From NCBI GenBank assembly GCA_951406725.2, contig OX597840.1, positions 3,906,001-3,970,000 of the forward strand: a stretch of DNA of 64,000 nucleotides, in the 5' to 3' direction. The notes under the pieces are model-generated. The model was given only the letters and a program-made list of their open reading frames with translations. It was not told the DNA's origin and did no database searches. Shown here piece after piece: positions 30-53,437 of this stretch. The number at the start of each line of letters is the position of its first letter. Position 1 is the first letter of the stretch. This DNA comes from Octopus vulgaris. Its lineage: Eukaryota. Both the position numbers and the translations under genes were made by a program.

Positions 30-185
30 CGTGATTATGCGGTAAAAAGCTTGCTTCCTAACCAACGGGTTCCAAGCTCAGTCCCAATGCGTGGTACCAT
101 GGGAATGTGTCTTCTGCTATAGCTTTGGATCGATTAAAGAGTTGCCAGTAGATCTAGTAGAAGAAAACTGAAAGAAGCTTATTGT
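30..185 (+). mobile_element. SINE family A, degenerate 5' part
   Basis: Diverged match to 1052-1205 (ggtaa..agcttgctt..tcagtcc..tgtcttctgctatag..aactgaaagaag). Confidence 0.6.
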
Positions 186-15274: not shown

Positions 15275-16424
15275 TTCTTTACCACCCACAAGGGGCTAAA
15301 CATAGAAGGGACAAACAAGGACAGACAAACGGATTAAGCCGATTATATCGACCCCAGTGCGTAACTGGTACTTATTTAATCGACCCTGAAAGGATGAAAG
15401 GCAAAGTCGACCTCGGCGGAATTTGAACTCAGAACGTAGCGGCAGACGAAATACCTATTTCTTTACTACCCACAAGGAGCTAAACACAGAGAGGACAAAC
15501 AAGGACAGACAAACGGATTAAGTCGATTATATCGACCCCAGTGCGTAACTGGTACTTATTTAATCGACCCTGAAAGGATGAAAGGCAAAGTCGACCTCGG
15601 CGGAATTTGAACTCAGAACGTAGCGGCAGACAAAATACCTATTTCTTTACTACCCACAAGGAGCTAAACACAGAGAGGACAAACAAGGACAGACAAACGG
15701 ATTAAGTCGATTATATCGACCCCAGTGCGTAACTGGTACTTATTTAATCGACCCTGAAAGGATGAAAGGCAAAGTCGACCTCGGCGGAATTTGAACTCAG
15801 AACGTAGCGGCAGATGAAATACCTATTTCTTTACTACCCACAAGGAGCTAAACACAGAGAGGACAAACAAGGACAGACAAACGGATTAAGTCCATTATAT
15901 CGACCCCAGTGCGTAACTGGTACTTATTTAATCGACCCCGAAAGGATGAAAGGCAAAGTCGACCTCGGCGGAATTTGAACTCAGAACGTAGCGGCAGACG
16001 AAATACCTATTTCTTTACTACCCACAAGGAGCTAAACACAGAGAGGACAAACAAGGACAGACACACGGATTAAGTCGATTATATCGACCCCAGTGCGTAA
16101 CTGGTACTTATTTAATCGACCCTGAAAGGATGAAAGGCAAAGTCGACCTCGGCGGAATTTGAACTCAGAACGTAGCGGCAGACGAAATACCTATTTCTTT
16201 ACTACCCACAAGGAGCTAAACACAGAGAGGACAAACAAGGACAGACAAAGGGATTAAGTCGATTATATCGACCCCAGTGCGTAACTGGTACTTATTTAAT
16301 CGACCCTGAATAGATGAAAGGCAAAGTCGACCTCGGAGGAATTTGAACTCAGAACGTAGCAGCAGACTAAATACCGCTAAGCATTTCGCCCAGCGTGCTA
16401 ACGCTTCTGCCAGCTCGCCGCCTT
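15275..16424 (-). mobile_element. SINE family M hexamer: one head plus six 184-bp bodies, nested in a SINE A copy
   Basis: Unit starts at 15277, 15461, 15645, 15829, 16013 and 16197 (period 184); head at about 16375-16424. Host SINE A lies at 15183-15274 and appears to resume after 16425. Confidence 0.9.
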
Positions 16425-25140: not shown

Positions 25141-25484
25141 AATTAATCAATATAGGGTGGCAAAAAAAAATTTTGTAGAATTCTTTTGCCACCAGCGGCC
25201 TAGTGGGAAAAAATAAATAGTCATAGACCATTTTTAAGTTCAACATCAACAATCAAGGAACGGCCATAATAGGCCATTCACCCACTAGAAATAACAGCCA
25301 AAGCATCAACCGCAAATAAAAATTAATTCCGTAAACCAGGAGAAAATTTAAAAAAACATTTACAGGGTAAATGTTTTTTAAATTTTCTCCTGGTTTACGG
25401 AATTAATTTTTATTTGCGGTTGATGCTTTGGCTGTTATTTCTAGTGGGTGAATGGCCTATTATGGCCGTTCCTTGATTGTTGAT
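25141..25484 (-). mobile_element. (TA)n-embedded hairpin element E1 (probably Penelope-like)
   Basis: Near-perfect palindrome 25245-25484 (119/118-bp arms, loop agg at 25364-25366) plus a ~100-bp unpaired extension. Confidence 0.75.
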
Positions 25485-25741
25485 ATATATATATATATTT
25501 ATTATTTATACGTATATATGTACATATATATTGCTCTAATGGCTGCAGTCAAGTGATTGAAATAAGTAAAAGAAAGTATATATGTGTGTGTATAAGCAAC
25601 GGAAGAATTTTGGGTTCTTATATTTCGATAAGTGATTTGAAACACATCAGGCCTCAGCGCAATAATTGTAGTATTCTCGGTTAATACAAATACGTATATG
25701 TGTGAGTGTGTTTACACATACATATATACATAAATAAGTAA

Positions 25742-25803
<62 letters not shown>

Positions 25804-25805
<2 letters not shown>

Positions 25806-26177
25806 CAACAATTGAGGGTAAAATTAATTAATTATTAATCAATTTCACCAAGTGTTCAGTATGCAAAGGGACCATTTAAGGCGAATTCAAATTATTACAA
25901 TATATAAAAGGGCTTAGTAAAATAAATTACTTTGCCGCATACTGAACTCATTAGAAATAGCAGCTAAAAAACTTTTTTAAAACTATTTCTAATACTTAAA
26001 GAAAACCTCTCTCATATAGTGTTTGCTCAACTCAACTCACTTCGTGAGTTGAGTTGAGCAAACACTATATGAGAGAGGTTTTCTTTAAGTATTAGAAATA
26101 GTTTTAAAAAAGTTTTTTAGCTGCTATTTCTAATGAGTTCAGTATGCGGCAAAGTAATTTATTTTACTAAACCCTTT

Positions 26178-26185
<8 letters not shown>
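25804..26185 (-). mobile_element. (TA)n-embedded hairpin element E2
   Basis: Palindrome 25899-26185 (142-bp arms, one mismatch seen, loop ttc at 26041-26043) plus a ~95-bp extension. Confidence 0.75.
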
Positions 26186-26231
<46 letters not shown>

Positions 26232-26234
<3 letters not shown>

Positions 26235-26435
26235 TACAGATATAGGGTAAAGAATTATTAATTTAATAATTAATAAATTTTACCAAGTAGTTTCGGTATG
26301 GAAAAAACCATTATCGATAAAAAATTGTCTGTGGAGTCATATCCGTAGTTAAAAGAATTAGCTGTCTTTGACTGCTATTTCTAAATCTTCGGTGTGTGGT
26401 GAAGCAAATTGTTGCTAAACCCTTAATTCCTTAAT

Positions 26436-26436
<1 letters not shown>
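26232..26436 (-). mobile_element. Element E3: same family, centre of the hairpin missing
   Basis: Extension (agggtaaag..ttttaccaagtag..accatt) joined to a right-arm-type end (ctgctatttcta..ctaaaccctt). Confidence 0.65.
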
Positions 26437-26470
<34 letters not shown>

Positions 26471-27755: not shown

Positions 27756-28799
27756 AAATTTATGAATTTTTTATCGCAGTTTATTACATATCTTTATTAC
27801 ATAAATTTTTTTCGCCAGATAAAAGATTTTTAAAATCGCCATTTTATATCACCTATATTGCCTTTTAAGATTCATTAGCTATTTGTACGCATACTTTATA
27901 CCCACCGCCCATCGAGCGTAGTTCAGTGGCCCCTTAGCTATGTGTTTTTTTATGTGTGTATTTTTTTAAATGCATCTATCTCTTGATATTCAGAAGGATT
28001 TTATTTGTTGATGGAATTTGGGTCCATATATAGAATGTATGTGTGAGAGTGTATGTACGTAGCTGTGTTTTTATAAATTTACGCGTGTGTCTTTGCGAGT
28101 GTGTGGGAACGTGTGTGTAAAAAAGAGTCAAACCGTGAAAATGGAGAACGAGGAGACAGCCATATTTTTTTATAATTTTATAGATTTATATTTATTATGT
28201 TTTAATAAATATGTTTTATAAATTCATATTTTGGCAATTTTTTACTATGTTTTTTTATTAGATTTAGAAAGATATTTTTAATGGTCTTATGCACTTTTAC
28301 AAAATTTAATATACAAACATTTTATACACAAACGCTCAAATTCAAAATGCAAAACTTGAAAATTGAGTGTTACTACCACCACAACCACCACAACCAGCGG
28401 TAAATCAGAACCTAGTCTTTTATCCAAATCTTATCGCAGGGTTCTTTCTATAAAAGACAGCATAAACACGTCGTTTCTCCGTTGAGTTTTCTCTACATCA
28501 GAAGTCTTATTTATTCTAATAGCATCTTTCCTTGAACTGCTGTGCTCATCACTTCTGCTCTATAGCATTCAGTGTTTTAAATTCTCTCTCAATCCACATC
28601 TTTTGAATCTATAGGCTTTTCGTTTCTTTGTAATCCCTTGCGCTACAATCGTTTGAAACCTTATTTGGAAGAAAATCACGTTTAAAAAACGTAAACTTGT
28701 ATAACAACACTCTTTGGTCATTATTATGCATCTTTAGAGGATAGTACTTTCTAGCAAGCATTTTGAGCTCCTGGGCTAGAGATAAAGCCTTCTCTATCT

Positions 28800-29395
28800 A
28801 TTTCTTTACTAACCACAAGGGGCTAAACACAGAGAGGACAAACAAGGACAGACAAACGGATTAAGTCGAATATATCGACACCAGTGTTTCACTGGTACTT
28901 AATTTATCGACCCCGAAAGGAAGAAATACAAAGTCGACCTCGGTGGAATTTGAACTCAGAACGTAACAGCAGACAAAATACGTATTTCTTTACTACTAAG
29001 AAGGGGCTAAACACAGAGAGGACAAACAAGGACAGACAAACGGATTAAGTCGATTATATCGACCCCAGTGTTTCACTGGTACTTAATTTATCGACCCCGA
29101 AAGGATGAAAGGCAAAGTCGACCTCGGCGGAATTTGAACTCAGAACGTAACGGCAGACAAAATACGTATTTCTTTACTACTCAGAAGGGGCTACACACAG
29201 AGAGGACAAACAAGGACAGACAAACGGATTAAGTTGATTATATTGACCCCAGTGTTTCACTGGCCCTTAATTTATCGACCCCGAAAGGATGAAAAGCAAA
29301 GTCGAGTTCGCAGAATTTGAACTCAGAACGTAGTGGCAGAGGAAATACTGGAAAGCATTTCGCCCGGCGTGCTAACGTTTCTGCCAGCTCGCCAT
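28800..29395 (-). mobile_element. SINE family M trimer with 11-bp TSD
   Basis: Three ~184-bp bodies plus one head; ccttctctatc at 28788-28798 and 29398-29408. Confidence 0.88.
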
Positions 29396-51773: not shown

Positions 51774-52078
51774 TGCATATACACATGTATATGTATGTAA
51801 ATATGCTTGCAATAATGTATATATACATAATTAAGGATATAATCAATTAATTATAAGTAGCCAGCATGTAACAAAAACCATATACATAAAAAATTAATAT
51901 AGATGTATAATTATATATAGTTATAATTAAGAATACAGCGAAACAGCACTCAAATGCTAGAGATAGACATCGAATGACTCTAAAAACCACTTCAAATTAC
52001 ACTCCTTTAACACAAGGTTCAAAGCGAGGAAATGAATATAAGAGATTTAGTAAAAATATGTTGTTCTTTTTTAGGTTT

Positions 52079-52132
52079 ATTCTAGATCATCCGATTTCTA
52101 GTTTACCAATAATTTACCGTCATCAGCAGAAT
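52079..52132 (-). ncRNA. Type I hammerhead ribozyme motif
   Basis: ATTCTG CTGATGA cggtaaattattggtaaacta GAAA TC GGAT GA TC TAGAAT; stem II weak. Confidence 0.65.
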
Positions 52133-52248
52133 ATACCAAGTGTACATCTGTGTAAATATATAATCATACCCATACAAATACATGCGTATATATAGGCATG
52201 TATTTGTATGGGTGTGATTGTATATTTACACAGATGTACTTTTGGTAT

Positions 52249-52308
52249 ATTCTACTGATGACGGTAAAGTAATAATATTGCTGAACCAGAAATCGGATGA
52301 TCTAGAAT
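52249..52308 (+). ncRNA. Type I hammerhead ribozyme motif
   Basis: ATTCTA CTGATGA cGGT..ACCa GAAA TC GGAT GA TC^TAGAAT; intact CUGAUGA/GAAA/UH core, predicted cut after C52302. Confidence 0.75.
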
Positions 52309-52457
52309 TAACCGCAAAAAGTATTTTTATAAAATCCCTTTTATTCATTCTCTCGCTTCCAGCCTTGTGCTAATGGAGTGAGATTTGAAGTGGCTTTTAG
52401 AGTCATTTGAAGTCTATCTCTAGCATGTCGTATATATATATATATATATATATATAT

Positions 52458-52881: not shown

Positions 52882-53437
52882 AAGGCGGCGAGCTGGAAGA
52901 AACGTTAGCACCCCGGGCGAAATGCTTAGCAGTATTTCGTCTGCCGCTACGTTCTGAGTTCAAATTCCGCCGAGGTCGACTTTGCCTTTCATCCTTTCGG
53001 GGTCGATAAATTAAGTACCAGTTACACACTGGTGTCGATATAATCGACTTAATTCTTTTGTCTGTCCTTGCTTGCCCCTTCTGTGTGTAGCTCCTTGTGG
53101 GAAATAAAGAAATAAGAAACGTTAGCGCGCCGGGCGAAATGCTTAGCGCTATTTCGTCTGCGTTACGTTCTGAGTTCAAATTGCGCCGAGGTCGACTTTG
53201 CCTTTCATCCTTTCGGGGTCGATAAATTAAGTACCAGTTACGCAATTGGGTCGATATAATCGACTTAATTCTTTTGTCTGTCTTTGCTTGTCCCCTCTAT
53301 GTTTAACCCCTTGTGGGTAATAAAGAAATAAGAAACGTTAACACGCCGTACGAAATGCTTAGCGGTATTTCGTCTGCCGTTTGTCTGTCCTTGTTTGTCC
53401 CCTCTGTCTGTAGCCCCTTTAAGGCAGTAAAGAAATG
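52882..53437 (+). mobile_element. SINE family M multimer (about three units) with 20-bp TSD
   Basis: Units restart at agaaacgtta; agaaacagaaatcattatta at 52857-52876 and 53438-53457. Confidence 0.85.

Follow-up and report, generated by a model that had tools for sequence, protein, structure and literature searches.

Insertions of EN+ PLEs are described by Craig et al. 2021 (PMC8557442), in the sections of that paper covered here, as carrying an optional tail of 30-40 bp, an extension present at one end only, and the same sections place the PLE RTs as sister to TERT. For the Anolis Poseidon element PAc, the parts of Frangieh et al. 2024 (PMC11167929) drawn on here report that the purified protein, a predicted dimer, nicks and extends both target strands, that the tail is bounded by two internal sites at which RT starts, both lying downstream of the hammerhead, and that the targets are AT-rich. 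Within those parts the two start sites are given without a conserved RNA determinant. The origin of the one-sided PLE tail and of mirror-image insertions is the question addressed by the RNA module described below. The hammerheads of metazoan PLEs have been described (PMC4209133) as having a short and mostly palindromic stem III. For the non-LTR retrozymes, circRNAs of ~170-400 nt have been reported and mobilisation by PLEs has been proposed (excerpts of Cervera and de la Pena 2020, PMC7229834, and Li et al. 2026, 10.64898/2026.07.22.740005).

The window analysed here, a 64,000-nt stretch of the Octopus vulgaris genome rich in microsatellites, contains four elements, E1, E2, E3 and E4, each of which is one head-to-head insertion within (TA)n and belongs to a different repeat family; the four families occur throughout the genome, lack ORFs and carry a type I hammerhead (Table 1). 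A first look at the genome gave 815, 775, 2556 and 184 candidates for E1 to E4, respectively, with 40 scored for each. The inversion centre of E1 (~25356-25373) lies ~7 nt downstream of the F1 hammerhead cut site. E4 is an old copy, with mirror arms matching at 85-91% and relatives 71-83% identical, and its left-arm hammerhead is found ~125 nt upstream of P1. The centre of E4 (52060-52330) is a short fold-back of 81 nt (91%) in which each strand bears a hammerhead, and SINE-like repeats of 184 bp and 216 bp form tandem arrays elsewhere in the window (15275-16375, 28799-29332 and 52897-53377).

Table 1. Coordinates of the elements E1-E4 and of their predicted RNA features (positions within the window)
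Feature	Position	Strand	Details
E1, family F1 (493-bp unit)	25141..25485		head-to-head; long end ~25141, short end ~25484
E1 three-way domain	25199..25289	-	P1 25289-25281/25207-25199; P2 25279-25258 then CUU
E1 domain, remaining parts		-	AU-rich linker (short-end site), P3 25233-25215, U-run
E1 P4 region	25141..25193	-	P4 hairpin 25193-25156, then CU and AU-rich run up to long end
E1 inverted arm	25374..25485	+	111 nt, 100% complementary to left arm; short end 11 nt past P2-CU
E2, family F2 (560-bp unit)	25804..26188		head-to-head; long end ~25804, short end ~26185
E2 arms			145 nt, 99% complementary; centre 26041-26043
E2 module	25817..25947	-	P1 25947-25937/25864-25854; P2 25936-25911 + CUU
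E2 module, remaining parts		-	P3 25882-25871, U-run, P4 25849-25817 + CU
E3 long arm, family F3	26232..26320	-	P3, U-run, P1 3' strand 26300-26292, P4 26284-26246; halts within the linker, ~41 nt 3' of P2, ahead of the short site
E3 short arm	26320..26440	+	P1 5' strand 26388-26396, P2 26398-26421 + CUU, short end
E4 module, old family F4	51826..51966	-	P1 51960-51954/51867-51861; P2 and P4 decayed; long end ~51826
E4 left-arm type I hammerhead	52079..52133	-	core 52126-52120, predicted cut after 52085
E4 right-arm type I hammerhead	52249..52308	+	core at 52255, predicted cut after 52302
E4 right arm	52191..52430	+	atypical end inside P1 5' strand, neither short nor long site

The predicted fold has a simple layout, in which a helix P1 of 7-11 bp encloses the hairpin P2, a CU, an AU-rich linker, a mini-hairpin P3 and a U-run, and a junction of 4-8 nt, mostly YRCY, then leads into the hairpin P4, which is followed by a CU and AU-rich bases. 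The initial annotation had read from the diverged E1-E4 a common layout built around two stretches, X and X', that remain complementary while changing in sequence. All eight strings quoted for X and X' are present in the window where they were placed, and the shared layout was borne out by single-sequence folds, by motif matches compared with controls and by z-scores. For E3, the two quoted strands lie on opposite arms and form no single helix in the window, but both occur in cis in other F3 copies. Single-sequence folding found P1 for E1, E2 and E4, and the terminal hairpin, also singled out at the outset, folds in E1 (25193-25156) and E2 (25849-25817) but has decayed in E4. The motif ATGGT is the 3' strand of P3 in some lineages but is not a universal element: in F1 it forms the 5' strand of another P3, and it is absent in F9, F10, F11, F12, F15 and F16, while TAT(T/C)TCTA partly corresponds to the P1 5' strand and is not universal either (F5, F8, F11). 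ATGGT as a start codon, splice donor or SECIS core was ruled out, since it forms one strand of P3 and not all lineages have it; a pseudoknot between ATGGT and the P1-P4 junction was ruled out by geometry (no loop 3) and, by eye, by the lack of covariation. An HDV-like reading of CUAA ahead of the P2 3' strand in F2/F3 was also rejected by eye, as it has no upstream P2 partner and is missing in other lineages.

Representatives of the module (20 in all) were folded one by one without an alignment, and the layout was recovered in most, the exceptions being F3d, F11b, F13, F16 and partly F5b. Their folding z-scores ranged from -0.3 to -6.5 and were -2.4 or lower in 17 of the 20; F13 (z -0.3) is doubtful and was left out of the lineage count. 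The sense fold was more stable than the antisense fold in 16 of the 20. Three module-derived motif patterns gave 4330, 845 and 2418 matches vs 0, 49 and 0, respectively, in the reversed control. Genome copies were collected and a covariance model was built, as had been suggested, on 12 members of the F2/F3 clade only, and was searched against 664 kb comprising the window and neighbouring, GIY-YIG and unselected loci. This model recovered F1 at 56 bits, F5 and further new families with the same fold, and two further model runs added more. At least six lineages thus share a like fold at a module identity that is at shuffle level (51-65% across lineages vs 50-64% for shuffles), and linking of lineages at >=68% identity yields six or seven groups. 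P3 is swapped wholesale across lineages, one of which has a C(UUCG)G loop, and the conserved unpaired bases are few, namely the two CU, the U-run and the YRCY junction.

Neither the F1 and F2 units nor 14 module representatives had an Rfam 15 match near a gathering score, and the top 150 matches of an Rfam scan of the window were only microsatellite- and hairpin-driven miRNA; since the hammerheads were also missed by Rfam, its sensitivity here is limited. An identity of the module with a known self-cleaving ribozyme, with SECIS or with any other family of Rfam 15 was therefore set aside, as no covariance-model match was obtained, in agreement with the initial annotation, which could place the sequence in none of the ribozyme or SECIS folds it considered. 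In the literature searched, with Repbase, Dfam and most subscription journals outside its scope, no description of such a structured domain was listed.

A sequence-only alignment of 20 modules was analysed with RNAalifold, which predicted P1 unaided; two-sided changes occur in 6 of the 8 pairs that it predicted. Across all nine pairs of P1, 94.7% of cells are paired, vs 26-48% for slid partners, and two-sided changes are found in 6 of 9 pairs and 23 cells, in an alignment with two misaligned rows and with phylogeny ignored; among 500 shuffles, the pair count was reached by 6 and the cell count by 0. Within the F2/F3 clade, two-sided changes occur in 5 of 32 pairs spread over P1, P2, P3 and P4, again with phylogeny ignored, the pair count being reached by 57 and the cell count by 0 of 500 shuffles. 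A structure-fitted alignment giving 31 of 32 pairs was inflated by register shifts and was set aside. G-U oppositions outnumber A-C oppositions by 30:9 and 14:1, and this excess identifies the folded strand as the hammerhead strand. The same data bear on the possibility that the module is a by-product of inverted duplication, as the initial annotation had considered, and of AT-rich palindromes, without any selection on RNA. Such an origin would draw on the fold-backs that are frequent in these elements and on the P4 loops, which are AT palindromes. However, X and X' occur inside each unit of direct tandem arrays and are thus no by-product of local inversion; pairs have changed on both sides; the G-U excess is confined to one strand, as expected from RNA folding of the hammerhead strand and not from neutral decay of DNA palindromes; and the geometry is fixed across lineages at shuffle-level identity. 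An origin as a by-product is already contradicted by the array, covariation, G-U and geometry evidence and is hardly tenable. Judged on its predicted folds and their covariation, the module is a real, selected RNA structure.

Copies of nine families (F1, F2, F3, F5, F10, F11, F12, F15 and, from a separate scan, F4) carry a type I hammerhead that precedes P1 by ~87-160 nt on the same strand, and together with the covariation and strand bias this supports the original proposal of a selected RNA structure downstream of the hammerhead. None was found in the few, mostly truncated, scanned copies of F3d, F4, F6, F7, F8, F9, F16 and G2. Stem III of these hammerheads is short and mostly palindromic, and stem II measures 12-79 nt. 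In the F3 and F10 hammerheads (L083, L085, L315), which come from young or abundant families, the core deviates at the first conserved positions. Of 55 F1 positions, each a 5' end or an inversion point, 11 lie at -6..+12 of the predicted cut, where 2.1 would be expected if uniform, at loci picked with a query extending to about +18; the corresponding values are 4 of 41 vs 1.4 for F2, a weak signal, and 1 of 15 vs 0.6 for F10, which shows no signal. These figures hint, for F1 only, that the cut RNA may serve as the template.

F1 and F2 are young families, with top matches of 97-100%, and build head-to-tail arrays of their 493-bp and 560-bp units, the longest among the matches listed having nine units in a row. 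The F10 and F15 units measure 493 and 505 bp. The longest ATG ORFs in the units of these four families are 35-70 aa, BLAST at E 1e-3 found no mutual similarity between the units, and ARAGORN found 0 tRNA genes in them, decayed heads being able to escape its detection. A tRNA-headed SINE was accordingly rejected as an identity, ARAGORN having found no tRNA-derived head in the four units. The F1 (L008) and F10 (L315) units are both 493 bp long, yet unrelated by BLAST; both carry E2F-like and CCAAT-like motifs upstream of the hammerhead, which we take to be a possible internal Pol II promoter. The F2 unit is covered by contigs of four sequencing runs, presumed to be RNA, such contigs being blind to ends, strand and circles. 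A motif of 13-20 nt from the 5' edge of the module recurs in other abundant repeats that have no module (L095:4912, L105:4192, L184:4534, L056, L059, L181). In unselected sequence, 36 insertion sites were counted per 890 kb, which extrapolates to ~1e5 per genome, a rough figure as 20 of the 89 unselected regions flank the window.

The ends of the insertions were then referred to the fold, the short end (S) being that after P2-CU and the long end (L) that after P4-CU. Across 16 reference families, a CU follows P2 in 15 and P4 in 15, and S and L lie mostly 8-20 nt past the helix-CU. Among 82 F1 module copies, 35 continue into the following unit and 2 are interrupted internally; a short end, at +49..60, is found in 20, a long end, at +157..163, in 24 and another end in 1. 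The 64 F2 copies comprise 24 that continue, 16 short, 21 long and 3 other. When only ends abutting TA are counted, F1 has 20 short, 24 long and 1 other (n = 45) and F2 has 16 short, 21 long and 2 other, so that stray ends amount to 3 of 84 in the two families. The junctions overlap the TA repeat by 2-4 nt in TA-phase (longer in F15), against a background mean of ~1. The ends scatter over ~12 nt, in variable AU-rich sequence, and this speaks against a new ribozyme, self-cleaving or ligating, that would define S and L by its cuts, the other function suggested in the initial annotation. A covarying multi-helix junction that adjoins a hammerhead and belongs to no Rfam family is what such a ribozyme would look like, but with few conserved unpaired bases and a P3 that is replaced wholesale, we consider it very improbable.

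The two kinds of end are, moreover, coupled. The count covers units with an outward-facing S or L at both sides, and thereby excludes, for example, the right arm of E4. In the first set of two-ended insertions, 60 of 63 were L+S, 2 were L+L and 1 was S+S, and in a second set, from new loci, all 20 were L+S. Pooled and with two double counts removed, the proportion is 78 of 81; it becomes 67 of 70 when the 11 units obtained through the E3 query are left out, and is 10 of 10 at loci chosen independently of the module, three of these being the window's own. As independent choice of ends tops out at 50%, the L+S excess was tested against this ceiling, giving p-values of 4.5e-15 (60/63) and 1.9e-6 (19/19). 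With insertion ends at two fixed positions of the fold, paired short with long, the suggestion that the module is an RT-binding or priming signal gains direct genomic support, S and L being the putative start sites.

The coupling also has to be weighed against a fold selected for some other step, such as protection of the cut RNA, packaging, export or circle formation, with the ends set merely by two exposed TA-like single strands. The junction overlaps of 2-4 nt with (TA)n, the free variation of the linker sequence and the hammerheads upstream would all suit such a role. Elsewhere in the unit, however, AU-rich single-stranded stretches are barely used, as the low number of stray TA-abutting ends in F1 and F2 indicates, and passive choice leaves the coupling of the two ends unexplained. 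We regard this alternative as rather improbable.

Our preferred reading, to which we give a probability of roughly 0.6, is that the module may act in cis as a platform on which a borrowed PLE RT/endonuclease starts copying at two coupled sites, and it is best, and likely, understood as a structured version, ~100 nt long, of the PLE tail. A PLE protein dimer would bind the two helix-CU elements and nick both strands of the TA repeat, and each 3'-OH would pair over 2-4 nt with the AU-rich stretch that follows one helix-CU. Extension would then begin at L for one primer and at S for the second, and the far ends of the two cDNAs would be joined via template switching, giving a mirror-image insertion in which the ~100-nt tail is one-sided. 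Head-to-tail arrays would derive from the hammerhead-cut RNA, either as a linear multimer or as a circle.

A single start could also be envisaged, with priming at L only, a mirror arm made by cDNA fold-back or template switching, and an endonuclease cut in the TA-like linker past P2 that creates S in the new duplex and joins the second target end; the fold would then only recruit the protein and set L. This scheme predicts exactly one long and one short end, accounts for arms that are near-identical (100% in E1, 99% in E2), has a linker that is TA-like as an endonuclease target would be, and follows Craig et al. 2021, who in the sections covered attribute the tail to EN-mediated resolution (PMC8557442). 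On the other hand, S and L are equally far behind the same helix-CU motif, and this equal geometry suggests one recognition rule acting on the folded RNA. In only three clean cases (E3, L149, L189) the L arm halts at or before S, as collision on one RNA would give, and such an arm cannot have templated the S arm. PAc, too, has two RT start sites in vitro, in the part of the study covered (PMC11167929). The equal geometry and the three halted arms favour, short of proof, two starts over single priming, to which we assign a modest chance of being right. Among 13 shortened L arms, with the E3-query units excluded, 5 begin 13-22 nt past P2, and three of these five adjoin other inserted sequence. 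At L014, an F1 end has the short site joined straight to long-site sequence via a short shared overlap, as an L-to-S jump would give.

The elements show the traits of PLE-mobilised sequences, namely head-to-tail tandems, an inverted 5'-truncated copy, a type I hammerhead near the end, on the same strand, and, in 78 of 81 two-ended units, a tail on one side, here ~100 nt and not 30-40 nt long. Among 238 loci with module arms, 17 held PLE ORF fragments, and in none of the 17 did the fragment look continuous with the module (three were read base by base and the rest judged on position and strand). An autonomous EN+ PLE was therefore rejected as the identity of these elements, as no RT or GIY-YIG ORF was found continuous with the module in the 238 loci and the unit ORFs are short. 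The module was not found at the 3' ends of ~ten sampled PLE families either, so the link to a GIY-YIG/RT ORF that the initial annotation called for was sought in both sets and not found. At L156:1900-3000, immediately downstream of a tandem of an F2 subfamily, a decayed RT fragment of Hydra-like type proved to be a separate insertion with a different 3' end. A DNA search with F12 was rejected as a link to a partner, as its 5.6-kb spacing reflects a local duplication (L254/L255, ~5.6 kb, with an F12 copy inside).

Several PLE families were met in this search. A GIY-YIG family search, in which 150 of 6136 candidates were scored, gave Neptune-like elements with an intact 781-aa ORF encoding RT and GIY-YIG and with ends that carry a degenerate hammerhead and a short tail; their sampled 3' ends were without the module. 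One of these PLEs, at L171:2745-5087, is young and Neptune-like; many of its ORFs of 781 aa are intact, an open frame of 359 aa lies upstream, and the 3' end bears a degenerate hammerhead core. A Hydra-clade motif gave 650 matches vs 0 in the control, of which 30 loci and follow-ups were read, and the Hydra-type families read have hammerheads and ends of their own, with no module found. L332/L233, a Hydra-type family with a unit of ~2585 bp, is a young autonomous PLE in tandem arrays with little predicted structure; its own two ends lie ~75 nt apart, suggesting that long tails occur without the module. A third RT fragment led to two young PLE-like families (L402, L403), often head-to-head, with open frames of up to 1312 aa, a C-terminal GIY-YIG and long microsatellite-rich 3' regions, in 2.5-3 kb of which the module was not found. 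It was also not seen by eye at the published ends of Naiad_Obim, Naiad_Ovul and Hydra-1_Obim.

More tentatively, we propose that the module forms a two-site scaffold for a telomerase-related RT. The duplicated helix-CU may dock each half of a PLE dimer and present two AU-rich priming stretches, permitting concerted priming from both target ends, and the modules would then constitute a conserved RNA class that explains both the PLE tail and mirror-image insertions, moved by a driver that may have a different end. On this same tentative footing, the carriers would be PLE-mobilised, ORF-less elements with on the order of 1e5 insertions, a large radiation of gene-less parasites that evolved or retained this RNA. 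Because deeply diverged natural sequences mark the key helices and bases and predict exact start positions, the question of how the tail and the mirror-image insertions are made is open to mutational experiment. As PLE RTs are sister to telomerase, a structured RNA that sets their start would bear on the origin of template RNAs for such enzymes.

The core of telomerase RNA contains an enclosing helix, a loop with a short single-stranded priming stretch, an adjacent hairpin and a U-rich run. The module has a comparable enclosing helix, priming stretch, hairpin and U-rich run, a likeness we draw as an analogy only; no covarying pseudoknot was seen in it by eye, and, unlike in telomerase RNA, copying would pass through the 5' hairpin without repeat addition. 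In L1 twin priming, the element RNA is primed by both target ends, with an inversion as the outcome, the second primer being used at variable internal sites and the inverted part having no overlap with the first. Here, in contrast, a structure determines where the second site lies, and one arm is usually a duplicate of the other. With the metazoan non-LTR retrozymes, as presented in the excerpts of PMC7229834 and 10.64898/2026.07.22.740005, these elements share ORF-less head-to-tail repeats with one type I hammerhead per unit. They differ in their units of 493-560 bp, outside the 170-400 nt range, in a stem II of 12-79 nt, in a strong head-to-head, (TA)n and tail signature and in the second structured domain, one not described in those excerpts. 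PAc likewise has two start sites that bound the tail, which here are deduced from genomic ends. Its signal lies inside the ORF start, and copying begins in an AC-rich stem-loop without homology to the target, whereas the starts deduced here share 2-4 nt with it; for PAc, the parts covered describe no RNA structure common across families (PMC11167929). The closest match remains the EN+ PLEs as depicted in the sections of PMC8557442 covered, which have partial or full tandems, an inverted 5'-truncated copy, a one-sided extension, a hammerhead near the end and, in Naiad and Hydra, (TA)n targets. Unlike these, the present elements have no ORF, their tail of ~100 nt is part of a covarying four-helix fold, and both of their ends follow the same helix-CU motif.
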